DNA of 42,351 nt. Source: Chiloscyllium plagiosum (Eukaryota). Where the stretch lies: contig NC_057718.1 of NCBI RefSeq assembly GCF_004010195.1, positions 118,143 through 160,493 of the forward strand. The letters are read 5' to 3'. Below are positions 1 to 41,122 of this stretch, piece after piece; within the stretch, counting starts at the first letter, position 1; each line of letters begins with the position of its first letter. Below the pieces are notes generated by a model. It was given only the letters and a program-made list of their open reading frames with translations. It was not told the DNA's origin and ran no database searches. The translations under genes were made by a program, and so were the position numbers.

Positions 1-156
1 ACTCTCTCCCCACCCCCCCCCTCCTCTAGCTTATCTCTCCACGCTTCAGGCTCTCTGCCTTTATTCCTGATGAAGGGCTTTTGCCCGAAACGTCGATTTT
101 GCCTGTCCTCGGATGCTGCCTGAATTGCTGTGCTCTTCCAGCACCACTGATCCAGA
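1..156 (+). mobile_element. Penelope-like element 3' region (family A), tail-less arm, abutting or inserted into a family-B PLE
   Basis: Matches the family-A 3' sequence (cctgatgaagggcttttgcccgaaacgtcgatt...ggatgctgcctgaattgctgtgctcttccagcaccact) seen about ten more times in the window. It stops before the usual tail. Confidence 0.8.
63..98 (+). ncRNA. Minimal type I hammerhead ribozyme motif, family A (core intact)
   Basis: attc-CTGATGA(67-73)-a-gggc/tttt/gccc-GAA-ACGT-C(94)-gatt. Predicted cleavage after GUC94; stem I is weak. Confidence 0.75.
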
Positions 157-545
157 GAACACAGGGGGCCAACACCTTCAACCTATTTAGCTATCGCTGT
201 TGTTAACAGCTAACTCGAGAATGCAACTTCAAAAAAACGGTTTTGTGATTTACACATGAAAGAAGTGAAACTATCATTGTATTCTAACAGATGAAAGGGT
301 TAATAGACAATCAATTTTTCAATGTATAATTTCAGTTACATCACACTGTAAATTTTTGCTATAAATTCTGTTTTTTGCTATAACTTTTTGCTATAAATTA
401 CGATCGAGCCCTCCACTATCACCTGATGAAGGAGCGTTGCTCCGAAAGCTAGTGTGCTTCCAATTAAACCTGTTGGACTATAACCTGGTGTTGTGTGATT
501 TTTAACTTTGTACACCCCAGTCCAATACCGGCATCTCCAAATCAT
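153..545 (+). mobile_element. Penelope-like element 3' UTR fragment (family B)
   Basis: Highly similar to 4515-4885, the 3' end of the GIY-YIG-encoding element, including the tail ...ccggcatctccaaatcat. Confidence 0.85.
420..454 (+). ncRNA. Minimal type I hammerhead ribozyme motif, family B (intact)
   Basis: cac-CTGATGA(423-429)-a-ggagc/gtt/gctcc-GAA-AGCT-A(451)-gtg. Stem I cac/gtg, 5-bp stem II, palindromic AGCU helix III. Confidence 0.8.
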
Positions 546-1067
546 TCTCCACAGGCACTGTCTACAATTCCTCTCTGTTTCTTAACCAATGACATAGATT
601 CTGTTCCTTAACCTCTACTCCCAAAAATGAAGGCAATTGCAAATGTAACATTTACTTTGAAGCCAAAGCCACAATAAATCAAGAAATATACAGCCTCAAG
701 GCGATTACTTTGGGCAGTAAGATGTTTGCTGCTTTCAACACAAATAATTGAATTGCATAGTGTTAAAGATACAATATTGCCTCATTAAAGGAGTGAGAGT
801 AAAGTCCAAATAAATCCTCTCTGTATTGTGCAAATTGTGCCCAGAGGCAGTTTCGATATTGGTTGTTGTTGTGTTGGAGAAAACTTCAGTATAATAACAA
901 TCGCTTGATTGGCTTTTAGGCAAGTGTTTATATAAAGTATGATATATCGGTAACACGGCAGAATGACTGAGTTTGTGAAAAGGAAGCATCACTTTTCTCC
1001 TTTAACTCTAACATTGTTAGATAATTGGAGATGGTCGATAAGGTGAATAGCAGGCAATGTCAACATC

Positions 1068-1285
1068 CCATCCAGACTGGATTTTTATTATACTAAAACT
1101 GTTGTAGTGAGAGGGGTTAACTGGAGCTTGTGATTGTGATTGATGTCAGTCTCTATGGATCCTATTTGTGTCTCTGGAGGGTTTACTTCGTCTATTAATA
1201 AGGGGCTTCTTTCAATGAGGTATCCCATTTGATCAGTGGCAGCGTGTTCCTCAAAAAGGTTGGGATCAGCAGCTCCAGAGAAAGA
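1068..1285 (+). promoter_or_regulatory. Putative promoter/5' UTR of the GPCR gene, conserved with 31507-31720
   Basis: Shared blocks ccatccaga, gttaactg, gtcagtctctatggat, ttcaatg, ggtatcc and gggatcagcagctccagaga in the same order. AT-rich TATA-like tattaataa near 1193. Confidence 0.5.
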
Positions 1286-1289
1286 CAAA

Positions 1290-1373
1290 GATTGGAATCT
1301 CAGAACAACAGACTGGAATGTTCCAACAATGGATCAGAATCTGAGAACAATAGACTGGAATGTAACAACAATG
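1290..1373 (+). repeat. 21-bp tandem repeat x4 (42-bp higher order) overlapping the start of the GPCR exon
   Basis: In-frame translation DWNLRTT/DWNVPTM/DQNLRTI/DWNVTTM. Confidence 0.9.
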
Positions 1374-1503
1374 GACAGAAGGTTATCCTGGGGTCTTTCC
1401 TGGCTTTCTCAGGATTGGTCCTGGTTAGAGTTGCGGATAGAAGGTGTGCTGCTGATTATTCAGGCAGGTTACTATCCAATTCTTGCTATTGTTGGTGTTC
1501 CTG
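1329..1503 (+). CDS. Coding exon 1 of a GPR139/GPR142-like class A GPCR (N-terminus and start of TM1)
   Basis: MDQNLRTIDWNVTTMDRR...VLLIIQAGYYPILAIVGVP followed by a perfect phase-1 donor G|GTAAGT at 1503/1504. The YY-x-IL-x3-G-x-P TM1 pattern ending at an intron resembles GPR139-family exon 1 as I recall it. NVT glycosylation sequon present. The ATG at 1371 is an alternative start. Confidence 0.7.
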
Positions 1504-2027
1504 GTAAGTCTGTCTTTATCCACTTATTAAATCTATGAGCCATTGTGAACGCCATCGCTATAATTGTTATTTTTATTTGGTAAAGATGTAAACTATTATA
1601 TTCACTTTCAATCACAAACGCCATTCATATTTCATAAATTTTATTCCATTCATTTAAAAACATCTGAGGAGGAACAAATGTGTTCATAACCTGTTATGAA
1701 AGATCCCAGCCGATATAAACTCTTGCTGATTAGTGTCCTATATCTTTAAATACAACATACGTGAGACAATTTGTTTAATTTCAGTTACTTGTGTGTGGTT
1801 AATTTGAAAGAGAGAGAAATGGCTCTTAAGATTGCAAAAGATGTTCTGGGGTTTGAAGATGATTCCCAAATTTGCCAAGAAAGTTTAGAAAGACAAAAAA
1901 AGGCCATACTTTTAGAATTAGCAAAGACGTTAGAATTGAGTTTAACGAAAGACAAAAGTAAAACTGAAATTCTAAGTTAAAAATCACACAACACCAGGTT
2001 ATAGTCCAACAGGTTTAACTGGAAGCA

Positions 2028-2062
2028 CACTAGCTTTCGGAGCGACGCTCCTTCATCAGGTG
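2028..2062 (-). ncRNA. Minimal hammerhead motif, family B (intact)
   Basis: Reverse complement: cac-CTGATGA-a-ggagc/gtc/gctcc-GAA-AGCT-A-gtg. Confidence 0.8.
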
Positions 2063-2737
2063 ATTGTGGAGGACTCAATCCGAACACACATAGAATTTAT
2101 AGCAAAACTTAACAGTGTGATATAACTGAAATTATACATTGAAAAATTGATTGTCTGTTAAGCCTTTCATCTGTTAGAATACAGTGATAGTTTCACTTCT
2201 TTCATGTGTAAATCACAAAACCTTTTTATTAAAGTTGCATTCTCGGGTTAGCTGTTAACAATGGTGATAGCTAGATAACATGTTGAAGGTGTTAGCCCCC
2301 TGTGTTCTCTGTCTATGACCTGATGTTTAGATTGATTCTAATCTAAAAAGTGAGATAACAGAGTTTTACATAAATTCATGCAGTTTTTGAGCTCAGAGTT
2401 CTACATGAATGTATGCAGTTTTTGAGCAAAGTGCAATGTAACTCTGCAAGTACAAATTCACCCCACAAAATATATGTGTGCATGTGGGTTTTTGTCTGTG
2501 TGTGTGTCTGTCTGGGTTGGGGGTTGTGAGTGTGAGATAGTGTATGTGTGTGGGTGTAGTGAGTGCAGAGTGTCTTAAGTCTGTGAGGGGGTGCATGTGT
2601 GAGTGTGGGAGTGTGTGTCTATAAGGGTGTGTGTAGGTGTCTGTGTGTGCGTCCGTGTGTATAGGAGTGCCTGTGTGTGTGTGAGTGTGTGTGTGTGTAG
2701 GAGTATCTGTGTGTGTGTGTGTATAGTGCAATGGTGG

Positions 2738-3124
2738 TCACCTGTAATGTGACATGAACCCAAGGTCCCGGTTGAGGCCCTCCCTGTGGGTACCGAACTT
2801 AGCTGTCAGCCTCTGCTCAGCCACTTTTCTCTGCTGCCTGTCCCGAAGTCCATCTTGGAGGATGGTCACCCGAAGGTCCGAGGCTGAATGTGCTAGACCA
2901 CTGAAGTGTTCCCCAACTGGGAGGGAACCCTCCTGTCTGTTGATTGTTGTGCGGTACCCATTCATCCGTTGCCGTAGCCTTTGCTCGGTTTCCCCAATGT
3001 GCCATGCCTCCGGGCATTCTTGCCTGCAACGTATAAGATAGACAACATTGGCTGAGTCACATGAGTACCTGCCATGTACAAGGTGGGAGGTGCCCTCACG
3101 CGTAATGGTGGTATCTATGTCCAC
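2738..3124 (-). pseudogene. PLE GIY-YIG endonuclease domain (left arm)
   Basis: NVVYLIRCRQECPEAWHIGETEQRLRQRMNGYR...VGEHF...EQRL...GLNRD. Confidence 0.85.
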
Positions 3125-3487
3125 ACTCTGACACGTCTTGCAGCATCCACCATGACAGGGTTGTATGGAGTTGTCCTGAGAGCCGGGCAGTTTGCTACGA
3201 ACAATGATCTGTTTGAGGTTTGGGGTTGTTTAAAGGCAAGTAGTGGAGGTGTGAGGAAGTTCTTGGTGAGGTGCTCATCTTCATTGATAATGTGTTGCAG
3301 GTCACGAAGAACATGGCGTAATTTTTCAGCTCTCTGTCGGTTGCAGCACGTGTCTGTCTCCTGAGGAGGTCATTACGGTTCCTTGCTGTGGCACGGTGGA
3401 ACTGGTGGTCGATGAGTTGAGCATCGTACCTGTTCTTGTGAGGGCATCCCTGAGTGCTTCCAGGTACTCAACGTTACCCTCACAAGA

Positions 3488-4196
3488 ATGGGGTATGATG
3501 CCCACCTCATCGACAGCCAGTTCCAATGTGCCACAGCAAGGAACCGTAATGACCTCCTCAGGAGACAGACATGTGCTGCAACCGACAGGGTACCCTTCCT
3601 TGTTCAGTATTTCCCAGGAGCTGAAAAATTACGCCATGTTCTTCATGACCTGCAAAACATTATCAATGAGGATGAGCACCTCACCAAGACCTTCCTCACA
3701 CCTCCACTACTTGCCTTTAAAAACCGCCAAACCTCAAACAGATCGTTGTTCGTAGCAAGCTGCCTGGCTCTCAGGACAACTCCATACAACCCTGTCACGG
3801 TAGGCGCTGCAAGATGTGTCAGAGTGTGGACATAGATACCACCATTGCGCGTGGGGACACCTCCCACCTTGTACATGGCAGTACTTATGTGACTCAGCCA
3901 ACGTTATCTATCTTATCTGCCCGGAGGCATGGTACATTGGGGAAACCGAGCAAAGGCTACGACAACGGATGAATGGGCACCGCACAACAATCAACAGACA
4001 GGAGGGTTCCCTCCCAGTTGGGGAACACTTCAGTGGTCCAGGACATTCAGCCTCGGACCTTCGGGTGACCATCCTCCAAGGTGGACTTCGGGACAGGCAG
4101 CAGAGAAATGTGGCCGAGCAGAGGCTGATAGTTAAGTTCAGTAACCATAGGGAGGGCCTCAACCGGGACCTTGGGTTCATGTCACATTACAGGTGA
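3488..4196 (+). pseudogene. PLE ORF C-terminus with GIY-YIG endonuclease (right arm, frameshifted)
   Basis: GYDAHLIDSQF...RVPFLVQYFPG...PPLLAFK, then NVIYLICPEAWYIGETEQRLRQRMNGHR...GLNRD. Confidence 0.85.
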
Positions 4197-4759
4197 CCAC
4201 CATTATATTATACACACACACAGATACTCCTACACACAAACACACACCCCACACTCACACATGCACCCCCTCACAGATTAAGACACTCTACACTCACTAC
4301 TCACACAAATACACTTTCTCACACTCACAACCCCCAACCCAGACAGACAGACACACACACACACAGACAAAGACACACAACACACATATATTTTGTGGGG
4401 TGAATTTGTACTTGCAGGGTTACATTGTACTTTGCTCAAAAACTGCATGAATTTATATAAAACTCCGTTATTTCACTTTTTAGATTAGTATCAATCTAAA
4501 CATCATGGCTTAGACAGAGAACACAGGGGACCAACACCTTCAACATATTGTCTAGCTATCACCATTGTTAACAGCTAACCCGAGAATGCAACTTTTTTAA
4601 AAAAAGGTTTTGTGATTTACACATGAAAGAAGTGAAACTATCACTGTATTCTAACAAATGAAAGACTTAACAATCAATTTTTCAATATATAATTTCAGTT
4701 ACATCACACTGTAAATTTTTGCTATAAATTCTGTGTGTTAGGATTGAGCCCTCCACTAC

Positions 4760-4794
4760 CACCTGATGAAGGAGCGACGCTCCGAATGCTAGTG
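4760..4794 (+). ncRNA. Hammerhead motif, family B, core-mutated (GAAA>GAAT)
   Basis: cac-CTGATGA-a-ggagc/gac/gctcc-GAATGCT-A-gtg. Confidence 0.6.
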
Positions 4795-6139
4795 TGCTTC
4801 CAATTAAACCTGTTGGACTATAACCTGGTGTTGTGTGATTTTTAACTATGTACATCCCAGTCAAACACCGGCATCTCCAAATCATGAAATTCTAAGGGAG
4901 TTAGTCAAGCACTTAGGTATGTCAGAGTAACATACAAGTACAGTAGAGTGAGAGAACTTAATTTACAATTAAGGAAAATGGAGCTAGAAGATAAAGAAAA
5001 GGAGAGAGAAAGAGACAGAGAAGAAAGAGAGAGAAAGAGGAAAAAGAAATAGAGGGAGAGATAGGGACACTAACAGATATCGCCATAGTAACTGTGAGCA
5101 ACACACTCTCTATCAAAGATACCTTTTTCTTAAGAAACATCCATACCGCAAAAGACCAAAGACAACCCAGGGAGATTTCTAGCTAGAGGAAGACAGACAC
5201 AGGAGATGATAGCTGCTGTGTGGTTTTGAAATTAAGTTGATGTAATTTTAACACACGTGGTTATTGGAACAGTACATTGTTAGTGAGTTGGAGGAAAATA
5301 ACAAGCAGTTAAGAGAAAGGAGGGTTAGAGTTGTAAAAAGTTGTTTAATGTTCACTTTTAGAGGTAAAGAATAAATTGATATTTTTTCTTTAAATAGTGG
5401 AATTTGGGAGTACTCCGTCATTCATACTTTAACAGATTACGACGTGAGGTGAGCTTTTCTTAGTGTTTGGTTTAATTAGCAGAGGGGTTCACTGCTATGT
5501 TGCAACAATACAGAGTGACTCCATTCTGTCCTGAGATGATGTTTATCTCTCTATATTCCATATATCACCAAACTGATCTACTGCAATCTCCATAATATTC
5601 CCAGTCTTCACTTCTCCCACGTTACTATTTCTGAATATACCATCACCTACACTTTTCTAGTTGAAGTTCTCTTCTAGCCACTCTTCCAGTTATAAATATT
5701 TTATAACAATCATATTCTTGTCTCTACCAGGAACTACACCAGGTGCAAAATTTGAAGCCAGTTTGTTTCTAAAATGAGCTGGTCACAGCTTTATGTCACC
5801 TGTTTCAGCATAACCTGTAACCTCATAGTAGGGAGAGGACTGTGCTGTCAGTGGCCGTGAAATTACAGTTTCATTAAACTGCTTTGATAGTAGAACATTC
5901 CAAGTAGGAGTGAGTGCCATGTCCATCCTCTCTCAAGTGCAGTGCTCCCATGTATTAATTCGGTGACGGAGGCGATCTCTGCCCATTGCTGAGGAGGATA
6001 TATTAATTCTGTCTCCACAGAGGAAGGTACTGAAAATCTTCAAGAAATTCTATGGGACAGAGTAACTGGTGAAAAGAAGAAACTGTGGGAGATTAGGATT
6101 AAGAAAGAGAAATTACTCAAAAGACGAACTGAATTTAAG

Positions 6140-7662
6140 TTTGGTAAACTGCTGCCCCAGACGGGTTCCATCCCAGAGTATTCAGGGAGAGCACAGTAGA
6201 GCTAATGAAAGAGTTATAGTCATACAAGACAAAAACAGACCCTTCGGACTAACCAGTCTGCACCAACCATAATTCCCAATCTAACTGAGTTCCACCTGGC
6301 AACGCTTGGCTCATATCCATCCAGACATTCCCTATACATGTACTTATCCACATGTCTTTTAAACGTTGAAACTACAAGAATTAATTATTGAATATCCTTC
6401 AAAATTAGTTGGACTCTGGAAATTCCGGTTCCTGCAGACTGGAAAGTAGCTACACCCACGCACTCTCTTCTTCTGTCTCTCGCTCTCTCTCACACACACA
6501 CATACACACAAATCTGTGGGTCAAATTTGTATTTGGAGATACAGGTGTGGTGGATAGCGAAGATGGTTAGTTCAGAGTACAACGAGATCTTGATCAGATG
6601 GGTCAATGGGCTGACAAATTGCAGATAGGGTTTAATTTAGATAAATGTGAGGTGCTGCATTTTCAAAAAGCAAATCAGAGCAGGACTTATACACTTAATG
6701 GCAAGGTCCTTGGGAGTGTTGCTGAACAGAGACCTTGGAGTGCAGATTCCTTGAAAGTGAAGTTGCAGGTAGACAGGATAGTAAGGAAGGCATTTGGTAT
6801 GCTTTCCTTTATTTGTCAGAGCATTGAATATCAGATTTGGGATGGCATGTTGCAGCTGTACAGGACATTGGTTAGGCCACTTTTGGAATATTGTTTGCAA
6901 TTCTGGTCTCCTTCCTATCCGAAAGATGTTGGGAAACTTGAAAGGGTTCAGAAAAGATTTTCAAGGATGTTGCCAGGGCTGGAGGATTTGAGCTATACGG
7001 ACAGGTTGAATAGGCTAGGGCTGTTTTCCATGGAGCATCTGTGGTGACTTTATACAGGTTTATAAAATTATGAGCGGCATGGATAGGGTAAGTAGACAAG
7101 GCCATTTCCCTGGGCTGGGGGAGTCCAGAACTAGAGGGCACAGGTTTAGGATGAGAGGGGAAAAGTTTAAAAGGGACCGAAGGGACAACTTTTTCATGCA
7201 GAGAGTGGTACATGTATGGAATGAGCTGCCAGATGAATTTGTGGAGGCTGGTGCAATAACAACATTTGAAAGACATCTGGATGGGTATGTGAATAGGAAC
7301 AGTTTAGTGGGATATGGGGGTTTAGATTAGAGTGGTGTTGGAAAAGCACAGCAGGTCAGGCAGCATCCGAGAAGCAGGAAAATCGACGTTTCGGGCAAAA
7401 GCCCTTCATTCGGAATGGCTTTTGCCCGAAACGTCAATTTTCCTGCTTCTCGGATGCAGTCTGACCTGCTGTGCTTTTCCAGCACCACTCTAATCTAGAC
7501 TCTGGTTTCCAGCATCTGCAGTCCTCACTTTTGCCTTAGTGGGATATGGGCCATGTGCTGCCAAATGGAACTAGATTAGGTTTGGATATCTTGTCGGCAT
7601 GGTCGAGTTGGACTAAAGGGTCTGTTTCCATGCTATACATCCCTGTGAATCCATGACTCCAT
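6140..7662 (+). mobile_element. CR1-clade LINE (HER1-like) 3' part, RT C-terminus and 3' UTR; contains an antisense CR1 tail (~6210-6375) and a mini-PLE
   Basis: WADKLQIGFNLDKCEVLHF...LYRTLVRPLLEYCLQFWSP...LERVQKRFSRM...TRGHRFR, followed by a short tandem 3' terminus. Confidence 0.85.
7319..7535. mobile_element. Miniature fold-back PLE (family A) with degenerate hammerhead motifs
   Basis: Inverted arms of ~80 bp, ~35-nt tail on the right, perfect 15-bp TSD ttagtgggatatggg at 7304-7318 and 7536-7550. Confidence 0.9.
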
Positions 7663-8744: not shown

Positions 8745-9295
8745 AGAATAGAATTCCTACAGTGTGGAAGCAGGCCCTTCTGCCCAACAAGTCTTCACCG
8801 ACCCTCTGAACAGCAACCCACCCAGACACATGCCCCCCCCCCTACCCTATTAGCACCTAACCTACACATCCCTGAATACTATGGGCAATTTATCATGGGC
8901 GAGCCACCTAAACTGCATATCTTTGGATTGTGGGAGGAAAGAGCTGGAAATGTGTTGCTGGAAAAGCGCAGCAGGTCAGGCAGCATCCAAGGAGCAGGAG
9001 AATCGACGTTTCGGGCATGAAGAAGGGCTCATGCCCGAAATGTCGATTCTTCTGCTCCTTGGATGCTGCCTGACCTGCTGCGCTTTTCCAGCAACACATT
9101 TTCAGCTCTGATCTCCAGCATCTGCAGTCCTCACTTTCTCCTATTGTGGAAGGAAACCAGAGCACCCAGAGGGAACCCACGCAGAGATGGTGAGAATATG
9201 CAAGCTCCACACAGACGATCGCCTGAGGTTGGAATTGAACCCGGGTCACTGGCACTGTGAGGCAGCAGTGCTAACCACTGAGCGACCGTGCCACC
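8745..9295 (-). mobile_element. HE1-type tRNA-derived V-SINE, interrupted by a mini-PLE
   Basis: Reverse complement matches the copies at 11949 and 19162 (ggcacggt...cagtggttagcactgctgcctcacag head, CR1-like tail). Confidence 0.85.
8941..9142. mobile_element. Miniature fold-back PLE (family A)
   Basis: Near-perfect inverted arms, 34-nt tail, 14-bp TSD attgtgg(g/a)aggaaa at 8927-8940 and 9143-9156. Confidence 0.9.
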
Positions 9296-9840: not shown

Positions 9841-9849
9841 TGATATCGG

Positions 9850-12739: not shown

Positions 12740-14198
12740 AAGTCTTTCAAAAGTCACTGGAGTCAGGGAAAGTCCCGGATGATTGGACGATCGCTGTTGT
12801 AACCCCCTTGTTCAAAAAAGAATCAAGACAAAAGATGGAAAATTAGAGGCCAATTAGCCTAACCTCGGTTGTTGGTAAAATTCTAGAATTCATCATTAAG
12901 GATGAGGTTTCTAAATTCTTGGAAGAGCAGAGTCGGATTAGAACAAGTCAACATGGATTTAGTAAGGGGAGGTCGTGCCTGACAAACCTGTTGGAATTCT
13001 TTGAAGAGGTGACAAGTAGGTTAGACCAGGGAAACCCAGTGGATGTGGTCTANNNNNNNNNNNNNNNNNNNNNNNNNNNNNNNNNNNNNNNNNNNNNNNN
13101 NNNNNNNNNNNNNNNNNNNNNNNNNNNNNNNNNNNNNNNNNNNNNNNNNNNNNNNNNNNNNNNNNNNNNNNNNNNNNNNNNNNNNNNNNNNNNNNNNNNN
13201 NNNNNNNNNNNNNNNNNNNNNNNNNNNNNNNNNNNNNNNNNNNNNNNNNNNNNNNNNNNNNNNNNNNNNNNNNNNNNNNNNNNNNNNNNNNNNNNNNNNN
13301 NNNNNNNNNNNNNNNNNNNNNNNNNNNNNNNNNNNNNNNNNNNNNNNNNNNNNNNNNNNNNNNNNNNNNNNNNNNNNNNNNNNNNNNNNNNNNNNNNNNN
13401 NNNNNNNNNNNNNNNNNNNNNNNNNNNNNNNNNNNNNNNNNNNNNNNNNNNNNNNNNNNNNNNNNNNNNNNNNNNNNNNNNNNNNNNNNNNNNNNNNNNN
13501 NNNNNNNNNNNNNNNNNNNNNNNNNNNNNNNNNNNNNNNNNNNNNNNNNNNNNNNNNNNNNNNNNNNNNNNNNNNNNNNNNNNNNNNNNNNNNNNNNNNN
13601 NACCGTTATGCTACTGAGACTTTATAAAGCTCTGGTTAGGCCTCATTTGGAGTACTGTGTCCAGTTTTGGTCCCCACACCTCAGGAAGGACATACTGGCA
13701 CTGGAGCGTGTCCAGCGGAGATTCACACGGATGATCCCTGGAATGGTAGGTCTAACATATGAGGAACGGCTGAGGATCCTGTGATTGTATTCTTTGGAGT
13801 TTAGAAGATTAAGGGGAGATCTAATAGAAACTTACAAGATAATACATGGCTTGGAAAGGGTGGACGCTAGGAAATTGTTTCCGTTAGTCGAGGAGGCTAG
13901 GACCCGTGGACACAACCTTAGAATTAGAGGGGGTAAATTCAGAACAGAAATGCGGAGACATTTCTTCAGCCAGAGAGTGGTGGGCCAGTGGAATTCATTG
14001 CCGCGCAGTGCAGTGGAGGCCGGGACGCTAAATGTCTTCAAGGCAGAGATTGATAAATTCTTGATGTCACAAGGAATTAAGGGCTACGGGGAGAATGCGG
14101 GTAAGTGGAGTTGAAATGCCCATCAGGCATGATTGAATGGCGGAGTGGACTCGATGGGCCGAATGGCCTTACTTCCACTCCTAGTCTTATGGTCTTAC
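12740..14198 (+). mobile_element. Younger 5'-truncated CR1 LINE inserted antisense into the older CR1; spans the assembly gap
   Basis: SQHGFSKGRSCLTNLLEFFE before the gap; [15 protein letters not shown] and RRLRGDLIETYK..TRGH after it; ends tcttatggtctta. Confidence 0.9.
13053..13601. other. Assembly gap (N run)
   Basis: 549 consecutive N. Confidence 1.
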
Positions 14199-22636: not shown

Positions 22637-22724
22637 GCTGAAAATGTGTTGCTGGAAAAGCGCAGCAGGTCAGGCAGCATCCAAGGAACAGGAGAATCGA
22701 CGTTTCGGGCATAAGCCCTTCCTC
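22637..22724 (-). mobile_element. Single-arm mini-PLE (family A), truncated within the hammerhead core
   Basis: 14-bp TSD atggattt(a/t)ttaaa at 22623-22636 and 22725-22738. Confidence 0.85.
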
Positions 22725-25022
22725 ATGGATTTTTTAAATCTGTTTAACTTTACTGAATTACACAGGAAACATTTTTCATTGTTAAACAGATGCAGGGTAT
22801 TTGTCTTAACTATAGGAAGTATTCCACCATTGAGATAAAATGTGAACATCTTTAATTGCTTGGTTATGACTTCCAATTTACATGGTTAATATATCCGTAG
22901 ACTGCAATATTAGGGAAGAAATCCTGCAGACACATTCTGCGCAATGAAGGATCTCTAATAAATATTATTACTGAGCACCACAGACAATGAAAGAGTAAAT
23001 TTCTGGTTCCAGAAGACCATATTGCAGATCATTATTTTCAGCCTCTAACATGTGACTGCCCTCTTCCTAAAGCCATTAAATGATAAAAGGCAACTTATTA
23101 TATTCCAGCCGGTCCTCACCACTGGCTGGGTCTGCAATCCACCCCCATCCTCCTTCTGCTCACACAAGCAAAACCAAGCTCAGGGTCTTTGTGAAAATCA
23201 AAGCCCGGTTTTCAGGGGAGAGTCTTTTAAAACTGAAGGGGGAGAGTGAAGGATGTCATATCCCTTACTCGGCTGAGGAGTGCAGATGGAGTTGAACTTG
23301 GATAAATGTGAGGCGTTGCATTTTGCTCAAGCGAAGTCAGACATATTAGTCAGAACAGAGAGACCTTGGCATTCAGGTACAGTTCTTTGAAGTTTGTATC
23401 ACACATACATCGGTTGTTAAAAAGGTGTTTATATAACTTACCTTCATTATACAACCTTGGAGTTGGAACATTATGTTGTGATTATGGAATACATTGATGA
23501 GGCCTCTTCTGGAGTACTGTATCCAGTTCTGGTCGGCCTCTTATAGGAATTACATTATTAACCTGGAGTCAGTTCAGGAGAAATTTACTAGGATGTTGCC
23601 TGGAATGGAGAGTTTGAGATAAAGTATTACGCTACATAGGCTGGGACGTTTTTCACTGGAGCCTAGCACGTTGATGGGTAACTTAGAGAGATTTATTAAA
23701 TCCTGAGAAGTATAGAACATAGAACATAGAACAATACAGCGCAGTACAGGCCCTTTGGCCCTCGATGTTGCGCCGATCCAAGCCCACCTAACCTACACTA
23801 GCCCACTATCCTCCATATGCCTATCCAATGCCCGCTTAAATGCCCATAATGAGGGAGAGTCCACCACTGCTACTGGCAGGGCATTCCATGAACTCACGAC
23901 TCGCTAACATCTGTCCTATACCTACCCCCCCAACTAACTGTCCAACTAAGTTTTCAAACAGGCAACATAAAGAACATAGGCTGAATTTTACCAGCCCAGT
24001 GAGTTGGTTTGGGAGGCAGGAGGCCTCATAAAATGGTACAGAATGTATTAAGAGGGGAGAATATTGTCTTTCTGCTATCATGATTCATTAGCAAGTGGTA
24101 GTGTGGCCATGCTTACCACAAGGCCAATAAATTCAATGAAGTGAAAAATTAAGGGCCACTCCTACCCCATCAGCATTTTACTAGAATCAGGAGGTGTGCT
24201 GTTGTGCAGATAGAACAGAGAAGGTCTTTTCCCTGGGGTGGGCGAATCCAGAACTAGACAGCAAAAGTTGAGGCTTAGAGGAGAAAGATTTATTAGGGAC
24301 CTAAGGGGCAACCTTGTCACTCAGAGGATGGTGCATGTATGGAATGAGCTGTCAGAGTAAGTTTTGGAGGCTGGTACAATTACAACATTTAAAAGGCATC
24401 TGGATGGGTAACACCGCTAGTGGCGGCACTCCAAGATGAACCTTTGCCATCAACTACTACCCTCTGTCTTCTTCCAGCCGGCCAATTCCTAATCCAAACC
24501 TCCAACTCGCCCTCAATGCCATACCTCCGTATTTTTTTGCAGTAGTCTACCATGGGGAACCTTCTCAAACGCCTTACTAAAATCCATATACACCACATCT
24601 ACTGCTTTCCCCTCGTCCACCTCCTTAGTCACCTTCTCGAAGAATTCAATAAGGTTTGTGAGGCACGACCTGCCCTTCACAAAACCATGCTGACTATCCT
24701 TGATCACATTATTCCTATCCAGATGTTCATAAATCCTATCCCTTACAATTCTCTTTAAGATTTTGCCCACAACAGAAGTGAGACTCACCGGCCTATAGTT
24801 ACTAGGGTTATCCCTACTCTCCTTCTTGAACAAGGGAACCACATTTGCTAGCCTCCAATCTTCTGGCACTACTCCTGTAGACAACGAGGACATAAAAATC
24901 AAGGCCAATGGCTCTGCAATCTCTTCCCTTGCTTCCCAGAGAATCCTAGGATAAATGCCATCAGGCCCAGGGGACGTATCTATAGATAAGGTGAATGGCA
25001 GATCTCTTTTTCCCTGGGATGG

Positions 25023-26783
25023 GAATCCGTGATACCGTTTAACCACCACTTCTGACTGTGTAATGACATGGGGAGGCAAGTAGAGAGCAATATTGTGTCA
25101 CTTGACACACCACAAAGACAGTCAGATCTTCCACACATGTAGATGTGCACACACACACACACGCAAACGCATACAAACTACACAGACTCGGATGCACACA
25201 CAACCCAATATAGACACATGGAGACACACATTAATATGATGACATGTGAGTCTGTCAGTAATATCTCTTGTTCCTTGGTGCATTGTAATATTTCACTCAC
25301 TCTGTCTACTTTGTGTAAGTATTTCCAGTGCTTAGTTGGCAGTGTATCATTATTTGATTAGCTCCAAGAAAAAATTGTCAATGTTTTGATCGGTCCGTGG
25401 GGTGTGTATCAATATTTCACTTGCTTATACCAGTGAGTATGTCAGTATGTCAGTTGTTCTGCATAAAACATGACTATGACAATTTCAAGTCTCGGGAGAT
25501 AGTGAAAGGTGAGAGGAGAAAGATTTTTAAAACTACATTCTTTTAATTAAACAAACAGTGGTTCGTGTGTGAAATGAACCTCCACAGGAAAAGGTGGGTG
25601 AGGGTGCAGTTACAATGTTGTAAAATCATTTGGATAAGTTCATGAATAAGAGAAGGTTTGTAAAAATAAGGGCGCAGGCAGATGGAACGAGTTTAGTTTG
25701 GGACTAAGTTCAGTATGGACAGGTTGGACCGAAGATTCTGTTTCTGGACATTATGACTGTAGGTGCGTTTGTGTGTCTGTGTATGGATCATAGTGTTTCT
25801 GTCTGTGTTAATGCCTATTTCTGTGTGTCCCCCTTGCATGTCTATCACTGTACGTGTTATGCGTGTTCCTGTATTAGTCTGTGTATGTATGTTTGTATCT
25901 CTACCTGTGCATCTCTGTGCGATGACAACTCTTTTGTTTTGGGTGTGAATTATTGAAATGAGAGTCAAAGTCTCTCTCTCCCCCTGCCTCTACCTCCAGC
26001 TGCTCCTATTTTGTTTAAAGTGATACAATGCAGTCTTTTTCTGTTGGTTTTAGTACATTTAAATCAATTCTCACATGTAAGATTAATTGTAAGAGTAAGT
26101 CATAAAACTTTGCAAGTTACAGAAAATGCAATAAAATTCATCTCATCTCCTTCAAAAATGGTTCATTCGGAGGTGCCTGGATATAATTACAGTGGAAATA
26201 CTTTTTAATGTGTATACTCTGTGTCAGGGTCAGGAAAACTGCCCAGAAACAAATCATTTCCACATTGCAAAGACAGTGCAAACATTTCTCCACATGTGCA
26301 TATTCCACTCTGAGGGCCCTGAGTATAGTTGCAATCCTCCCAATACTAGACTGTGTGTCTGTGTATATGTGTGTGGGTTAATGGTGCTGTCAGTTTGAAT
26401 GATGCTGTGAGCTGCTGTCCTCCCTCTCTGACTGAATCCGTGATACCATTTAACCACCACTTCTGACTGTGCAATGACATGGGGAGGCAAGCAGAGAGCG
26501 ATATTGTGTCACTTGACACACCACAAAGACTCTGGATTAGTGGTGCTCCAGAATCTGGTTTCCAGCATCTGCAGTCATTGTTTCTACCTACACCACAAAG
26601 ACAGTCAGATCTTGATCAGTCGATGCTTAGTTGGCAGTGTATCATTATTTGATTGGCTCCAAGAAAAATTTGTCAACGTTTCGGTCGGTCCGTGGGGAGT
26701 GAATTAATACTTCACTTGCTTATACCAGTGAGTACGTCAGTATGTCAGTTGTTCTGCATGAAACATGACTATGACAATTTCAA
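25023..26783 (+). repeat. Local duplication of ~270 bp of apparently unique sequence (25023-25488 and 26434-26783)
   Basis: gaatccgtgatacc...atgactatgacaatttcaa occurs twice, each copy with a private insertion. Confidence 0.9.
26531..26589 (+). mobile_element. 59-bp minimal PLE insertion (inverted stub plus tail)
   Basis: Perfect 13-bp TSD acaccacaaagac at 26518-26530 and 26590-26602; the empty site is present in the paralogous copy near 25107-25119. Confidence 0.9.
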
Positions 26784-27771: not shown

Positions 27772-27886
27772 AAGGTAAAAACAATGACTGCAGATGCTGG
27801 AAACCAGATTCTGGATTAGTGGTGCTGGAAGAGCACAGCAATTCAGGCAGCATCCAAGGAGCTTTGAAATCGACGTTTCGGGCAAA
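27772..27886 (-). mobile_element. PLE family A 3' end, truncated in hammerhead stem II
   Basis: ggtaaaaacaatgactgcagatgctgg...gaaatcgacgtttcgggcaaa. Confidence 0.8.
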
Positions 27887-27919
27887 TTGGACTCAGACAC
27901 TTCAGCAAGCAGTATAAGC

Positions 27920-29741: not shown

Positions 29742-30097
29742 AAAATGTATTGCTGGAAAAGTGCAGCAGGTCAGGCAGCATCCAAGGAGCAGGAGAATCG
29801 ATGTTTCGGGCATGAGCCCTTCCTCAGGAATGAGGCGAGTGTGCCAAGCAGGCTAAGATAAAAGTTAGGGAGGAGGGACTTGGGGGAGTGGCGTTGGAAT
29901 CCTCCAACCACAAGGGATGAACTCAGATTTCTCCAGTTTCCTCATTTCCCCTCCCCCCAACTTATCTCAGTCCCAACCCTCAAACTCAGCACCACCTTCC
30001 TAATCTGCAATCTTCTCCCTGACCTCTCCGCCCCCGCTTTTCCAGCAACACATTTTCAGCTCTGATCTCCAGCACCTGCAGTCCTCACTTTCTCCTG
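29742..30097. mobile_element. PLE family A with inverted arms; hammerhead motif on minus at 29796-29831
   Basis: 12-bp TSD tattttatgttc at 29730-29741 and 30098-30109. Reverse complement attc-CTGAGGA-a-gggc/tcat/gccc-GAAACATC-gatt. Confidence 0.85.
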
Positions 30098-30270
30098 TAT
30101 TTTATGTTCTCAGTTTGATGATTTACCCTTCAACAGCTGACTCCGAATGGTCCCATTCCAGTTTCAACCCCCGTATTTCTGCAACTTCTTGTCCAATAAA
30201 TAATTTTCCAATTTAAACGTGAATAACTCTGCTATATATTTACCTGGCCTTTGGTACTGTTCACTCTGGA

Positions 30271-30852
30271 GTTAAAAATCACACAACACCAGGTTATATT
30301 CCAACAGATTTACTTGGAAGCACTTGCTTTCAGAGCACTGCTCCCTCATCAGGTGGTTGTGGAGTATAACTTATACAAAATTACATTTTACTTGCACAAA
30401 AACTGCATGAATCCATATAAGATTCTGTAAATCAGTTTTTTAAGATTAGAATCAGACTGACCATTGTGGCACAGACAGCTTTACAGGAAGTTAACACCTT
30501 CAATACCTTATCTGGGCCGACACGACATCAATTGTTAGCGTGCACTTGAGAATGTAACCTTTAAAAAAAAGATTTACGATTTACATACGAAAGAATTGAA
30601 ACCAACATGGTCATGCTAAAAGATGAGAGACTTAACAAACAATCCGGGTCATTTTCAATATATAATTTCAGTCACTTCACTTTGTAAACTTTTGTTATAA
30701 ATTCTGTGTCTTACAATCTTATTCTTCACAATCACCTGATGAAGGAGCAGCACTCCAAAAGCTAGTGCTTCCAAATAAACCTGTTAGACTATAACCCGGT
30801 GTTGTGATTTTTAACTTTGTCCACTTCAGTTCAACACTGGCATCTCCAAATC
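30271..30852. mobile_element. PLE family B variant with inverted arms and two degenerate hammerhead motifs (minus ~30321-30355, plus ~30733-30767)
   Basis: Ends match 1977ff and 4740-4884. Confidence 0.85.
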
Positions 30853-32260: not shown

Positions 32261-32397
32261 ACTCATTCCTGATGAAGGGCTTTTGGCTGAAACGTCAATT
32301 TTCCTGCTCCTTGGATGCTGCCTGACCTGCTGTGCTTTTCCAGCAACACTCTGATCTTGATTCTGACCTCCAGCATCTGTGGGTCTTTTTCGCCTTT
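32261..32397 (+). mobile_element. PLE family A 3' end with hammerhead motif 32265-32300 (stem II damaged)
   Basis: attc-CTGATGA-a-gggcttttggct-GAAACGTC-aatt. Confidence 0.8.
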
Positions 32398-33871: not shown

Positions 33872-34085
33872 GGAGAAAGTGAGGACCGCAGATGCTGGAG
33901 ATCAGAGCTGAAAATGTGTTGCTGGAAAAGCACAGCAGGTCAGGCAGCATCCAAGGAGCAGGAGAATCGACGTTTCGGGCATGAGCACTTCTTCCTGAAG
34001 AAGGGCTCATGGCAGAAATGTCGATTCTCCTGCTCCTTGGATGCTGCCTGACCTGCTGCGCTTTTCCAGCAACACATTTTCAGCG
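33872..34085. mobile_element. Miniature fold-back PLE (family A), tail on the left
   Basis: Inverted arms; 13-bp TSD ccagttt(g/a)atcta at 33859-33871 and 34086-34098. Confidence 0.9.
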
Positions 34086-34580: not shown

Positions 34581-34670
34581 GGCACATTCTCAGTTAATTA
34601 ATTGTTTCTTTCTATCTTTAATGTGGACCTTTCTGTCCATCTGAGTCTTTCCCTGACCTTGGTTTATGGC

Positions 34671-35414
34671 TCAAAGTGTGTGGCGTTGGAAATGCACAGC
34701 CAGTCAGGCAGCATCCATGGAGTAGGAGAATTGGTTTCAAGCATAAACTCTTCATCAAGAATGAGGCTTGTGGCCCCAGGGTGCTGAGAGATAAATGGGA
34801 GGGGGTAGGGCTGGGGTGAAAGTAGCTGGGAATAAGATAGGTAGATGAAGGTGGGAGTGAGGTTATAGATTGGAGAAGAGGGTGGACCAGTTAGTTGGGA
34901 AGGAGGATGGACAGGTAGGACAGTTCAAGATGGTGGTGCCAAGTTGGATCAGGGATAAGGTGGGGGAGAGAAAGTGAGGAAACTGGTGAAACTCACATTG
35001 ATCCCGTATGGTTGCAAGATCCCAAGGCTGAAGATGAGGCATTCTTCCTCCAGGAATCGGGTGGTAAGGGTTTGGAGGTGGAGGAGGCCCAGGACTTGCA
35101 TGTCCTTGGTGGAGGAACAGATAGTGAAAGTATTCGGCTAATGGGCAGTGCGATTGTTTAATGCGTGTGGCCCAATTCTCTGAAACGTTCCACAAGTTAG
35201 CGTCCTGGCACATTTTGTCTCCAATGTGGAGGAGACCATATCGTGAGCAACAGACACAGTAGATGATGTATATGGAAGAACCTTCATTCCTCATGAAAAG
35301 ATTATGCTTGAAACGTTGATTCTCCTGTTCCTCAGATGCTGCCTGACTGGCTGTGCTTTTTCAGCACCAAACTCTTTGACTTTGATCTCCAGCATCTGCA
35401 GTTCTCACTTTCTC
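34671..35414. mobile_element. Older PLE (family A-related) with a GIY-YIG relic on minus and an inverted 3' arm
   Basis: IIYCVCCSRYGLLHIG in ORF 34863-35294; both ends carry degenerate hammerhead-region sequence. This links family A to a GIY-YIG PLE. Confidence 0.8.
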
Positions 35415-36475: not shown

Positions 36476-36499
36476 CTCCATGAAGAAAGATTTATTTCC

Positions 36500-37109: not shown

Positions 37110-37915
37110 TGTCATGTTACACTTGTATAATTCATTGGTGAGGCCCCACTTGGAACATTGGGTGCAATTTTGGTCACCCTGTTATAGGAAAGACATAGTT
37201 AAGCTGGGAAGAGTGCAAAGAAGATTCACAAGGATGTTATCAGGACTATAGGCCTGAGTTACAGGAAGAAATTGGCCAGGATAAAACTTTATTCCTTGGA
37301 ACATAGGAGAATAGTGTTAACCTTATAAAACCATGAAGGGCATAGGCGGGAAGAATGTATATAGTCTTTTTCCCAGGGATGAGAAGTTGAAAACTGGAGG
37401 ACATGGATTTAATGTGAGGGGGAAAGGTTTAAGAAGGACCTGAGGGGCAACTTCTTCACACCTATAGCAGTGTGTATATGGAATGGGCTGCCAGAGAAAG
37501 TGGTTAACAGGTAGGAGACTAGGAGAACACAGAATGCCAGGCAGCATCTGGAGGTGGACAAGTTGACATTTGGAGTGTAACCCTTCTTTAGGACTCAGAA
37601 GTCCTGAAGAAAGGTTACACCCAAAATGTCAACTTCTCCACCTCCTGATGCTGCCTGGCTTGCTGTGTTCTTCCAGCCTCCTGTCTATCTATTTTGGATT
37701 CCAGCATCTGCAGTTTTTATGTCTCTAGGGGAAGTGGTTGAGGCAGATACAAGAGCAACATTTTAAAAACATTTGTATAGGTACAAGGATGGTAAGGGTT
37801 TAGAGGGGTATGGACCAAATGTGAGTAAGTGGAATGAGCTGAATGGGCACTTTGGCCAGCATGGACCAATTTGGGCTGAATGGGATGTTTCCATGCTGTA
37901 TTACTCTATGACTCT
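37110..37915 (+). mobile_element. CR1 3' fragment with nested mini-PLE
   Basis: [23 protein letters not shown]; actctatgactctat terminus. Confidence 0.8.
37506..37726. mobile_element. Miniature fold-back PLE, family C, with two degenerate hammerhead motifs (minus 37562-37594, plus 37601-37633)
   Basis: The two arms suggest a consensus gtc-CTGAAGA-a-gggt/tac/accc-(G)AAA(C)GTC-(g)ac. Imperfect TSD ag(a/g)g(a/g)aagtggtt. Confidence 0.75.
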
Positions 37916-39465
37916 ATAACTCATATTTAGCCATGTTACATTTCACTGCGAAATGTTATCCCTTCACCTAAACTATCCATTATGGTTCGAACATTTCTTA
38001 AATTGTCATTACAACTTTTTTTCCCTCATTGCTGAAAATTTAGCATTTCTTATTGCTTCATCCAAAGAATACAACAGATGGCAAGCAGTTGGGGCCTGAG
38101 ATCTGAAGTCTCCAGCACCTCAAAATTTGCCAACCAGAAAACAATGCATCTATCCCATCTCTGCATTTTGGCGGTTTACATTTCCTCTGTCCAAGCCAAT
38201 AAACTACTCCTAACCCCCTGTGCTCTTATTTTAAGGATTAATCTTTTTTGCAGAACCTTATTCCATTCCTTTTGGAAGTCTACATATATTGATGCTCCAG
38301 AATCCCCATTATCCACCTTGCCTGTCCCATCTTTAAAGAATTCGAGCAAATAATTCAAACACAATTCTGCATGGGGTGGTTTGCTTTAACACTAGCTTGA
38401 CCACCAAACTAGAGATCAGGCTGTTTTAGAATTGATGGTGAGTGATCAGAAGTGCTAATTAAAAACCTTTTTTGCCTAGTGTTGCTGAGACTAAAGCTGG
38501 AATGTTGTGTACAGTTTTGGTGTCCCAATTTAAGAAAGAATATACTAATGGCAGAGGAAGCTCTCCAGCTTAATCCCTCAGGCAGCAAATTTCCTCTGAT
38601 GAGGAAACTCAGTCTGTATTCTTTTGAGTTCAAAGAATGTGAGTGATTGCAGTGAAACTTAGAATATTCACACAGAGGGGACTGACTGACACAGGGGCAT
38701 GGAGAAGTCCAAGCAGGCAAAGTTAGAAAGAATCCCAAGGAATTCTAAAAGTACATAACACAGAACATAAAAACCAGGGAACAATTAGGGCCCAGTAGAA
38801 ACCAAAGGGAAATATGTATGTGGAGCTAGGCAACATTGATAAAGTGTTACATGAGTGTTTCGCCTCTGTTTTACTTTGGAGAAGGACGCTGCAAGTACAG
38901 AATTCATGAGGATAGACCTTGAAGCTCTTGAGTAGATTGATATAAAATGTGAACTGAGATTGATGGTTTTGGCTGGCATAAGGTTGGACAAACCACCAAG
39001 TCCAGATGAGTTGAATTTCAGGCTGAGGGTTAGAAACAAAGGAGGAAGGAACCTAACTCAAATTCTGTTGTAGAATGTGGCTAGCTGGGAGGTGTCAGAG
39101 GACTGAACGGGAGGTTCCCATTCATAGGAAGGATGGCAAAAATAGACCAGGGAAAATTGGACAAGAGAGTATCAGATCATTCTTAGGGAAACTGTTAGAG
39201 AAAATAGTAAAGGAGAAAATTGATCTCCAATTAGAGAGGCAATGTTTGATCAGGGATCGTCAGCATGACTTTATCAGAGGGAAGTTGTGCTGAACGAATG
39301 TTATTGTTTTTTCAAGGGGGTCATTTATATTTGTTTAGCAAGGCCTTTAACAAAGCCTCATATAAGAAACTGATAAACAATGTAAAATCTCATTGTATCA
39401 AGAGATTGGCAAGTTGCCTCCAACATTGTCTTAGTGGCGGGAGACAGATGGCGGTGGTTGAAGAC

Positions 39466-39563
39466 GGGGTAAAAACAATGACTGCAGATGCTGGAAACCA
39501 GATTCTGGAATAGTGGTGCTGGAAGAGCACAGCAGTTCAGGCAGCATCCAAGGAGAAGCTCCT
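39466..39563 (-). mobile_element. Mini-PLE family A (tail plus partial arm)
   Basis: Perfect 14-bp TSD cggtggttgaagac at 39452-39465 and 39564-39577. Confidence 0.85.
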
Positions 39564-39835
39564 CGGTGGTTGAAGACTGTTTGTGCGACTTCAGACGGGT
39601 TTTTGCTGGCATTGCACAGGGATCAGTGCTGTGTCCCTTACCATTCTTGGTTTTCATAAACATTACAGATATGAATGCGGACAGGGATGGGGCAAGTGTG
39701 ATAAGTAGGTTTGTGCTCGACACAAAGATTGACTAGGTAGTAAGTGGAAGGTTTTATGTTGCAGGATGCTACAGATGGAATGGTCAGTTGGAAAGATCAA
39801 TGGTAGATGGAATTGAATCCTGCCAAATATGAAGT

Positions 39836-39923
39836 GAAAAATCACTCAACACCAGGTTATAGTCCAACAGGTGAACCTGGTGTTGTGTGATTTTTAACTT
39901 TGTCCAACACCAGCTCCTCCAAA
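39836..39923. mobile_element. Mini fold-back PLE, family B termini only
   Basis: aaaaatcactcaacaccaggtt / aacctggtgttgtgtgattttt inverted pair; imperfect TSD at(a/g)tgaagtga. Confidence 0.75.
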
Positions 39924-40827
39924 ATGTGAAGTGATATGCTTTGGAAGATGGAACGAGACAGGGGAGTATTGAATGTATGGTAACACAAGAGGAAGTTTGG
40001 AGATTAATGAGTAAGAAGCCAAAGGGGGCTGAATGCATCGGCATAGCCTTTATATATCAAGGCATAGCTTGTAATACAGGACGTTGGTTAGGGCAAGATG
40101 AAATACTGTGTGCAGTTCTGGGAGCCACATTGCAGGTAGGGTGTGATTGCACTGGACCAGGTGCAGAGAAGATTCACTAGGATGTTGCCGGGATGGAGCA
40201 CAGCAGTTATGAAGACAGACTGGATAACCTTGGATTGTTTGTTTTTGTGCAGAGAAGGCTGAGGGGGGTGTAATTCAGAAGTATAAAGTTACAAGTGACA
40301 TGGACATGGAGAGACAGCAGCTGTTCTTTTAAAGTGAAGGGTTCAATGTTTAGAGAGGGTGTGAGGATTGCTTTTCAGATGGTGTTGGGGATCTGGAGTG
40401 CACTTCCTGAGAGTTGTCACTTGTAACCACACAAGCATTAAAAAGTACTTGGACGAGCATTTGAAGCATTATTACATTCATGTAAATGGACCTCGTGTCA
40501 GAAAATGGGACTGATTTTGATGGTGCTGTATTTCTAACAGTACAGAGTCTATGCTTCTGTGATTGTATGATTGTAGAAGTAAATCAATGAGTAGCTTAAA
40601 ATGGGAATTGATGATTCTATTAAGAGCAAATTAGCAATGGTTATAATGGCTTCTAAAAGAATGCCAAAGAGAAAGGTAAGAGAAAGAATTGCAGCTACAT
40701 TACTATCTGAAAGAAGGGAATGAAGAATGGGAAATTGTCAGAAACTTTAAGCAACTACTTCAGTTCTATCTTCACAGAAGAAAACACGACAAAACAACAA
40801 AAAATCCCAGCAGCACTAGAAAACTAA

Positions 40828-41122
40828 TGTTGCAGACATTTCATCCCCTGTCTAGGCGACATCCTCAGTGCTTGGGAGCCTCCTGTGAAGCGCTTCTGTG
40901 ATCTTTCCTCCGGTATTTATAGTGGTTTGAATCTGCTGCTTCCGGTTGTCAGTTCCACTATAAATACCGGAGGAAAGAGCAAAAGGCGCTTCACAGGAGG
41001 CTCCCAAGCACTGAGGATGTCACGTAGACAGGGGACAAAATGTCTGCAACACAAATTCCCAGCTCGGTGAACAGAACCACAACAACGATCACCCGAGCTA
41101 CAAATCTTCTCACAAACTTTGA
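40828..41122. mobile_element. Miniature fold-back PLE, family D, with hammerhead motifs at minus 40832-40871 and plus 41008-41047
   Basis: Inverted arms of ~100 bp; perfect 13-bp TSD actagaaaactaa at 40815-40827 and 41123-41135. Minus arm reads gca-CTGAGGA-t-gtcgcct/agac/aggggat-GAAATGTC-tgc. Confidence 0.85.

Follow-up and report, generated by a model that had tools for sequence, protein, structure and literature searches.

We analysed a 42-kb stretch of the genome of the shark Chiloscyllium plagiosum (contig NC_057718.1; 42,351 nucleotides, referred to below as the window), for which a first-pass annotation made from the letters alone had reported four distinct families (A to D) of minimal hammerhead ribozyme motifs carried by Penelope-like elements (PLEs). 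The window very probably contains 3'-terminal fragments of endonuclease-encoding PLEs together with short derivatives of such elements, and a minimal type I hammerhead is located close to the 3' end of each type. Table 1 lists the motifs, the element copies that carry them and the associated coding remnants.

Hammerhead motifs and their copies

The motifs annotated for family A at 63-98 (+) and for family B at 420-454 (+) and 2028-2062 (-) were found exactly as had been claimed, with the letters described. The family A motif reads AUUC, CUGAUGA, A, GGGC-UUUU-GCCC, GAA, ACGU, C and GAUU, and the two family B motifs read CAC, CUGAUGA, A, GGAGC-GUU/GUC-GCUCC, GAA, AGCU, A and GUG. The layout that the families would have in common comprises a helix I of 2-3 bp, CUGANGA, one unpaired nucleotide, a helix II of 4-7 bp with the pair G10.1-C11.1, GAA and a four-letter helix III. 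The extra nucleotide after A9, located between positions 9 and 10.1, is present in all four families, as had been stated: it is A in families A, B and C and U in D, with G in one B copy. Intact A and B copies keep the G10.1-C11.1 pair, as do the left C arm and the right D arm; one B copy and the left D arm have G-U at this place. The helix III tetrad is self-complementary in most A copies (ACGU) and in B (AGCU), and is not so in one intact A copy (ACAU) or in C and D (AUGU). Helix II is GGGC/GCCC in A, GGAGC/GCUCC in B and GGGU/ACCC in C, and helix I is UC/GA in A, CAC/GUG (3 bp) in B and GCA/UGC in D. Of the covarying helices proposed at first pass, compensatory stem changes are visible between families; within families the changes are unconvincing, and the motifs had been picked for their fit to the model. 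In a cross-family MAFFT alignment, the stems of B and D were shifted against those of A. The AUG within the A and B cores opens 8-17 codons only. From the predicted cut to the short-form end there are 62 nt in A and 55 nt in B; in D, the predicted cut precedes the end of the left arm by 7 nt and that of the right arm by 80 nt.

For a search of the window, we re-implemented the RNAmotif descriptor for minimal hammerhead ribozymes (min-HHRs) given in the supplement of Cervera and de la Pena 2014 (PMC4209133). The descriptor places CUGANGA and GAAA-NN-U-H around a helix II of 3-7 bp with a loop of 3-10 nt, together with a helix I of 3-7 bp in which G-U pairs are allowed. In its strict form it yielded two matches, both of family B (423-451 on the plus strand and 2059-2031 on the minus strand), and any match at all was obtained in 1 of 200 dinucleotide shuffles. 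With helix I set to at least 2 bp, the matches rose to four by the addition of family A at 67-94 (+) and 29827-29800 (-), and none of 200 shuffles contained any. Beyond these four motifs, nothing in the window matched either the strict or the relaxed form. Within the window, the kind of descriptor search proposed in the first-pass annotation thus accepts B as it stands and A with a 2-bp helix I, and C and D fail it through mutations in the core or in helix II. A loose core pattern (CTGANGA...GAAA) matched 11 times compared with 3.49 expected, a number reached in none of 100 shuffles; the matches at 7925, 26917 and 34491 have no family context, fall within the number expected by chance and were set aside.

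By our own count from self-BLAST and alignments, 23 loci keep some remnant of a hammerhead (13 of A, two of C, six of B and two of D) and derive from 17 insertion events, a figure in keeping with the earlier estimate of more than a dozen copies. The motif is complete at only four of these loci (two A and two B); at the others it has been lost through 5' truncation inside the motif, through a head-to-head twin junction at or near it, or through mutation. Judged from their letters, the copies in the window are relics, almost all of them dead, with mutations often at CpG sites.

Family C (37560-37637) is a palindrome with both arms being decayed relatives of A, with which it aligns through a strongly conserved block downstream of the motif. 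G12 has been lost in both arms and G5 in one, and the differences between the right arm and A across the second core strand fall at CpG sites. Helix II differs from that of A by a two-sided change at the fourth pair, and helix I can be read as up to 7 bp if the first pair, now mismatched, is allowed. The arms of family D contain CUGAGGA, U, a helix II of seven positions of which one or two are mismatched, GAA (left) or AAA (right), AUGU, C and UGC; helix II is mismatched in both arms, G12 is lost in the right arm, and helix I has 3 bp. The division into four distinct families was not upheld: on this sequence evidence, family C is a CpG-decayed subfamily of A and not a separate architecture, and family D is a single decayed locus, with no other copy detected in the window by self-BLAST, that plausibly represents a third lineage. 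The D pair is inserted into a stretch that by eye resembles the reverse transcriptase (RT) open reading frame (ORF) of a long interspersed nuclear element (LINE), no search having been aimed at that stretch.

Table 1. Hammerhead motifs, element copies and coding remnants in the window.
Feature	Position	Strand	Description
Family A motif	63-98	+	Core intact: CUGAUGA, extra A, 4-bp helix II, 4-nt loop, GAA, ACGU, C17 at 94
Second family A motif	29796-29831	-	Core intact (CUGAGGA); tetrad ACAU, non-palindromic; helix I 2 bp
Family B motif	420-454	+	Matches published min-HHR descriptor; helix I 3 bp, extra A, helix II 5 bp, AGCU, A17 at 451
Family B motif, left arm of large inverted pair	2028-2062	-	Matches published descriptor
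Family B motif, right arm of large pair	4760-4794	+	Decayed: A15.1 to U
Large B head-to-head pair	1977-4883		5'-truncated copies; arms about 1.43 kb, 92-95% alike; centre near 3431-3491
Small B head-to-head pair	39838-39921		Cut off 3' of motif, so no hammerhead; tail right only; target-site duplication 12/13
A head-to-head pair	7319-7535		Junction inside motif; tail on right arm only; target-site duplication 15/16
A head-to-head pair	8941-9142		Junction inside motif; tail on right arm only; target-site duplication 13/14
A head-to-head pair	33872-34085		Junction at core; tail on left arm only; target-site duplication 12/13
Family C head-to-head pair	37506-37729		Tail on right; motifs at about 37560-37600 (-) and 37597-37637 (+)
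Family D head-to-head pair	40828-41120		Motifs decayed, 40832-40871 (-) and 41008-41047 (+); 73-nt extension on right arm only
A copy	22646-22725	-	5'-truncated inside core (starts at about U4)
A copy	27810-27886	-	5'-truncated in loop 2; tail present
A copy	32265-32350	+	Core intact; helix II damaged (GGGC/GGCU)
Older A subfamily copy	34680-34768	-	C3 to U, helix II GAGU/GCUU, helix III deleted
Older A subfamily copy	35281-35369	+	G5 to C, C17 to U
B copy	157-545	+	5'-truncated, 3' untranslated region only; short-form end 506; 39-nt tail 507-545
B copy	30270-30364	-	Motif decayed: U16.1 to A, G-U at 10.1-11.1, extra nucleotide G
B copy	30652-30824	+	Motif decayed: G12 to A
ORF remnant, right arm of large B pair	3422-4193	+	Frameshifted; RT end, Cys/His linker, GIY-YIG-type endonuclease
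ORF remnant, left arm of large B pair	2741-3466	-	Mirror copy of the right-arm remnant

Insertion anatomy, coding remnants and public reads

Seven head-to-head inverted pairs were found in the window: three of A, one of C, one of D, and a small and a 2.9-kb pair of B. In each of the seven, a 3' extension is present on one arm only, with a length of about 35 nt in A and C, 39 nt in B (26 nt in the small pair) and 73 nt in D. Target-site duplications with 12-15 matching letters flank six of the pairs and were equalled in at most 1 of 300 shuffles; among these six, the D pair shows 14/15 letters, and the large B pair, with its 3' tail on the right arm, has its duplication at 1964-1976 and 4884-4896. 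The duplication of the C pair is weak (9/10 letters, with as good a match in 22 of 300 shuffles). Given the one-sided extension and the flanking duplication, each inverted pair appears to be the product of a single insertion event. An anatomy in which a 5'-truncated copy lies next to an inverted, likewise 5'-truncated twin and only one end carries a tail of 30-40 bp is particular to PLEs (Craig 2021, PMC8557442; Frangieh 2024, PMC11167929), with the tail having been explained by two reverse-transcription start sites and both target strands being cut and extended (Frangieh 2024, PMC11167929). Direct pseudo-long terminal repeats (pLTRs) were not seen, there being no full-length copy and no direct partial tandem in the window; all copies are truncated, so that this feature could not show. 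The inverted twins at 7331-7489, 8977-9071 and 37565-37630 form long hairpins with sub-threshold Rfam matches to microRNA precursors (for example, MIR5998 with an E value of 1.5e-09 and 56 bits, compared with a gathering score of 180), and such twins could seed false microRNA predictions in this genome.

The arms of the large B pair match the last approximately 265 residues of shark proteins (residues 376-642 of a 643-aa protein and 614-880 of an 881-aa RT protein). The closest relatives are proteins of Chiloscyllium punctatum, with 87-97% identity, others come from further shark genera, and the full-length relatives (881-882 aa) carry an RVT_1 domain. The COOH-terminal 150 residues of the 881-aa protein aligned structurally with GIY-YIG clusters, with template modelling (TM) scores of 0.78-0.86 and four of nine alignments reaching the threshold. 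The putative GIY-YIG assignment rests on this alignment of a relative together with a motif pattern seen by eye. The B motif itself is situated in the 3' untranslated region (UTR), which is about 650 nt long, at about 570 nt past the stop codon. The PLE context of the motifs is well supported, directly for B by the coding remnant and for A, C and D by the insertion anatomy. The earlier assignment to minimal type I hammerheads of the PLE kind is in agreement with the descriptor matches, with the link of B to an RT and GIY-YIG remnant and with the PLE insertion signature of the pairs.

Upstream of the motif, about 60 nt are common to three of the five longer A copies, and there is no long homology among the five; the ORF that precedes one A copy, at 34866-35360 (-), does not resemble PLEs. 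Distinct from the B remnants is a further PLE-like ORF fragment. This fragment, 29-34% identical to the NH2-terminal part of the full-length proteins, extends off the end of the window (41750-42351) and appears to join a linker-region piece directly to an NH2-terminal piece. It was considered as the body of the D element and dropped, 700 nt of unrelated repeat lying between the two and the ORF being rearranged. Public shark gene models, including a PPP1R12A-like isoform and several 7tm_1 receptor-like proteins, hold stretches 84-97% identical to the endonuclease fragment (2741-3046 and 3918-4193) and have no further match in the window; these stretches reflect either exonisation of the element at other loci or contamination of the models.

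Public sequencing runs were compared with positions 1-560, which yielded 137,831 contig pieces from one probable DNA run and 13,790 from a possible RNA run; one poly(A) single-cell RNA run gave 5,170 reads, and another gave none. None of the public sources listed for the stretch is recorded as RNA. From the contig pieces of the DNA run, the copy number looks very high, which, together with the lack of any Rfam match, fits the very large and poorly annotated repertoire that had been suggested. Among the variants listed (share of at least 10%), those inside the A motif affect only N7 and loop 2, and those inside the B motif affect loop 2, in addition to a 2-nt deletion at the start of the 3' strand of helix I. 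Loose ends before position 63 were not used as a 5' boundary of A, given that their consensus partly resembles the upstream sequence of the element and that they may reflect alignment clipping.

An ATTAAA is located at 463-468, 12 nt past the predicted B cut, and 432 and 507 poly(A) single-cell reads run into A after positions 480 and 483, respectively. Coverage of 190-475 in one poly(A) single-cell RNA run is approximately 10-fold biased toward the strand of motif sense. The reads entering poly(A) suggest that B-type 3' UTR fragments supply working polyadenylation sites; genomic B copies extend to 506 or 545, past the poly(A) site, and the retrotransposition template would therefore not be the polyadenylated RNA. 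At 156/157, an A copy stops at its short-form 3' end and a truncated B copy follows directly with its 5' end. In one DNA run, eight and three contigs connect position 156 with position 545 or 546, respectively, of the opposite strand, suggesting that composite A/B junctions recur elsewhere in the related genome.

Ribozyme function and rival explanations

By analogy with published PLE work, two motif copies in transcripts of a master element would pair through the palindromic helix III and would be cut after C17 or A17, and such cutting would process read-through or multimeric PLE RNA. Metazoan min-HHRs have been described as having low and dimer-dependent activity in vitro (PMC4209133), and the motif of an Anolis PLE cleaves in vitro, with C3 and G8 mutants behaving as expected of a hammerhead (PMC11167929). 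Catalysis by the shark motifs is plausible by the same analogy, although activity would probably be weak and may need a protein.

A number of observations weigh against a PLE-borne ribozyme. A search with Rfam 15 returned no hammerhead family at the gathering score or at E<=10 for the whole window, nor at E<=10 for 441 bases around the A and B motifs. Hammerheads are represented in Rfam by the type I and type III families and by the HH9, HH10 and type II variants. The motifs described here share the catalytic core letters with those families and differ from them in the absence of a closed helix III and in the extra nucleotide, and no Rfam model reports them. Helix I of family A consists of two contiguous pairs, as a result of which the strict descriptor failed. 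The hammerhead fold was not the minimum-energy structure in energy models (-7.2 and -8.8 compared with -11.4 kcal/mol); these models keep the helix II hairpin and not helix I, and the dimers that they predict pair through helix II and not through helix III. The second core strand is mutated, with loss of A15.1, U16.1 or G12, in three of the five B copies that retain it. The longest well-kept block of A is not the motif but a region 20-52 nt downstream of the cut (window positions 114-146; 428/461 cells with the majority letter), which has equivalents in 15 other A or C copies and may be a candidate recognition region for the RT of the element. No pile-up of read ends was apparent on positions 1-560, including 94/95 and 451/452, in a poly(A)-primed library that is ill-suited to reveal one. 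In the Anolis system, ribozyme mutants inserted normally in vitro, and no reads ended at the ribozyme site (PMC11167929). With regard to the coding remnant, Pfam did not call GIY-YIG among 162 stop-to-stop ORFs of at least 70 aa, in six ORFs searched at E<=10 or in the full-length relatives; NCBIfam and PDB sequence searches gave generic RT matches or nothing, with no endonuclease called; and the AlphaFold2 model of the endonuclease ORF of the window had a predicted local distance difference test (pLDDT) score of 42. Carriage by PLEs, claimed for all families at first pass, is tied to an ORF for B, and families A and D have no such link within the window.

Several of these points would be expected if the motif were a conserved RNA module of PLEs without ribozyme action in vivo, its helix II hairpin and the purines beside it being instead a structural or protein-binding signal or a mere hitchhiker, with a vestigial likeness to hammerheads. 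Helix I is very short (2-3 bp), the catalytic fold is not the most stable one, read ends at the cut sites are lacking, metazoan min-HHRs are poorly active in vitro, ribozyme mutants insert normally, and the notion of hammerheads as mere parasites of PLEs has been raised (Craig 2021, PMC8557442). The letters best kept in family A are, however, the catalytic ones. The majority letter occupies 102 of 105 core cells, compared with 598 of 656 in the 3' flank (Fisher's exact test, P = 0.033, a value that is only indicative given that the copies are related), 68 of 82 in helix II and 36 of 44 in loop 2; the first-pass annotation had named equal conservation of core and flank as an outcome contrary to its proposal. 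In addition, a hairpin signal by itself would not require CUGANGA, GAA and a palindromic tetrad to be present in three lineages whose stems differ, and the Anolis motif does cleave, with mutants behaving as predicted. We therefore consider a module without ribozyme function unlikely.

Family A units might alternatively be monomers of a non-LTR retrozyme that spreads by way of circular RNA, and not fragments of an autonomous PLE. The A copies are short, share about 60 nt upstream of the motif in three of the five longer examples, are linked to no ORF and look very numerous, and retrozymes derived from PLE pLTRs have been reported in one chondrichthyan (Li et al. 2026 preprint). Tandem Repeats Finder nevertheless detected no array of motif-bearing units in the window, and the unit ends miss the predicted cut: no A copy starts at 95, and all end 62 nt (about 97 nt with the tail) past the cut. 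The copies also show PLE-like target-site duplications and one-sided tails, and a retrozyme origin is thus very improbable. The idea that the motifs are chance resemblances inside abundant repeats, unrelated to hammerheads, is close to refuted: it gains from the lack of an Rfam match and from the non-independence of copies of one repeat, because of which the raw count over shuffles overstates significance, but the complete layout recurs in three lineages that differ in their stems, at a similar place close to the 3' end of elements that show the insertion anatomy of PLEs, one lineage is tied to an RT and GIY-YIG ORF, and three parts of the layout (the palindromic tetrad, the extra nucleotide and G10.1-C11.1) were not among the features searched for.

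Within the reading of the copies as 3'-terminal PLE fragments with hammerheads, the positions of the twin junctions raise a further, speculative idea that we regard as doubtful, namely, that the hammerhead marks a preferred stopping or switching point for the PLE RT. In family A, a 16-nt segment (element positions 66-81), which starts immediately ahead of the first core strand (C3 = 67) and reaches loop 2, holds the inner (5') ends of all three twins and of two solitary copies. In the C twin, the junction is 8 nt upstream of the core, and no copy begins at the predicted cut. The B twins join 1.43 kb upstream of the motif (large pair) and about 25-40 nt downstream of it (small pair), and the D twin joins about 75 nt upstream; given that the B and D twins join elsewhere, the clustering of junctions at the motif may be a peculiarity of family A. 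Were the idea to hold genome-wide, the folded motif or a bound protein would shape the formation of twin insertions, a role beside or instead of self-cleavage, and the minimal mobile unit would be about 100-135 nt.

Relation to known systems and neighbouring features

PLE min-HHRs had already been described in 2014 as having an unpaired nucleotide after A9, G10.1-C11.1 and a helix III that is palindromic, and as forming covarying consensus families with thousands of copies per vertebrate genome (PMC4209133). The motifs in the window share with those PLE min-HHRs the type I topology, an open and short helix I, the CUGANGA/GAA core, G10.1-C11.1, the extra nucleotide and, in most A copies and in B, a palindromic tetrad that would imply dimers, as well as the presence of several families per genome, mostly as solitary copies on truncated elements, and of opposite-strand pairs 100-700 bp apart. 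The supplementary alignment of that paper includes fish, lamprey, coelacanth and frog motifs with a 3-bp helix I and an extra A, and a 2-bp helix I was accepted in a Drosophila virilis variant (PMC4209133). Family A likewise has only 2 bp in helix I and so escapes the published descriptor. Helix II has 4-5 bp in A and B compared with 7-8 bp in the Schistosoma families (PMC4209133). The shark families do not appear in the available parts of that paper, in the supplement of which the words "shark" and "Callorhinchus" occur zero times.

The Poseidon PLE of Anolis carolinensis, PAc, likewise has a hammerhead tens of nucleotides upstream of its 3' end and an optional 30-40 bp tail, cuts and extends both target strands in a manner that fits the head-to-head twins observed here, and also shows no RNA-seq reads ending at the ribozyme site (PMC11167929). 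The PAc motif overlaps the start of the ORF, whereas the family B motif is in the 3' UTR past the endonuclease stop, and the one-sided extension of D is 73 nt compared with 30-40 for PAc (PMC11167929). Animal non-LTR retrozymes are similar in having type I hammerheads on short, non-coding, abundant units related to PLE pLTRs, with solitary monomers being common (Li et al. 2026). The copies described here differ from them in the absence of tandem arrays, in unit ends located off the cleavage site, and in having tails and target-site duplications of the PLE type.

At the level of surveys, PLEs are known from cartilaginous fish, and hammerhead retrozymes and PLEs have been reported in one chondrichthyan (Li et al. 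2026 preprint). A literature search for hammerhead ribozymes and Chondrichthyes yielded nothing on shark PLE hammerheads by title or abstract, and the supplements of the bioRxiv preprint may list such families. The motifs in the window are thus new, mostly dead shark examples of a known motif class and establish no new principle. They indicate that minimal hammerheads borne by PLEs are very numerous in shark genomes and go unseen by Rfam-based annotation, a point of use for the annotation of repeats and non-coding RNAs in cartilaginous-fish assemblies. The twin insertions with duplications, one-sided tails and motif-clustered junctions provide natural examples for the study of PLE integration and of the role of the hammerhead.

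Other features are also present in the window. An open frame at 1202-1504 (+), for which a Pfam search was empty, ends at a donor-like GTAAGT site, contains a 42-nt tandem repeat and is a possible host exon. The 549 N at 13053-13601 mark an assembly gap. Fragments of non-PLE retroelements are located at 24516-25097 (-), 17715-18080 (+) and 41125-41740 (+); one of the corresponding ORFs matches RVT_1 at an E value of 8.7e-15, and another shows a weak endonuclease/exonuclease/phosphatase match.

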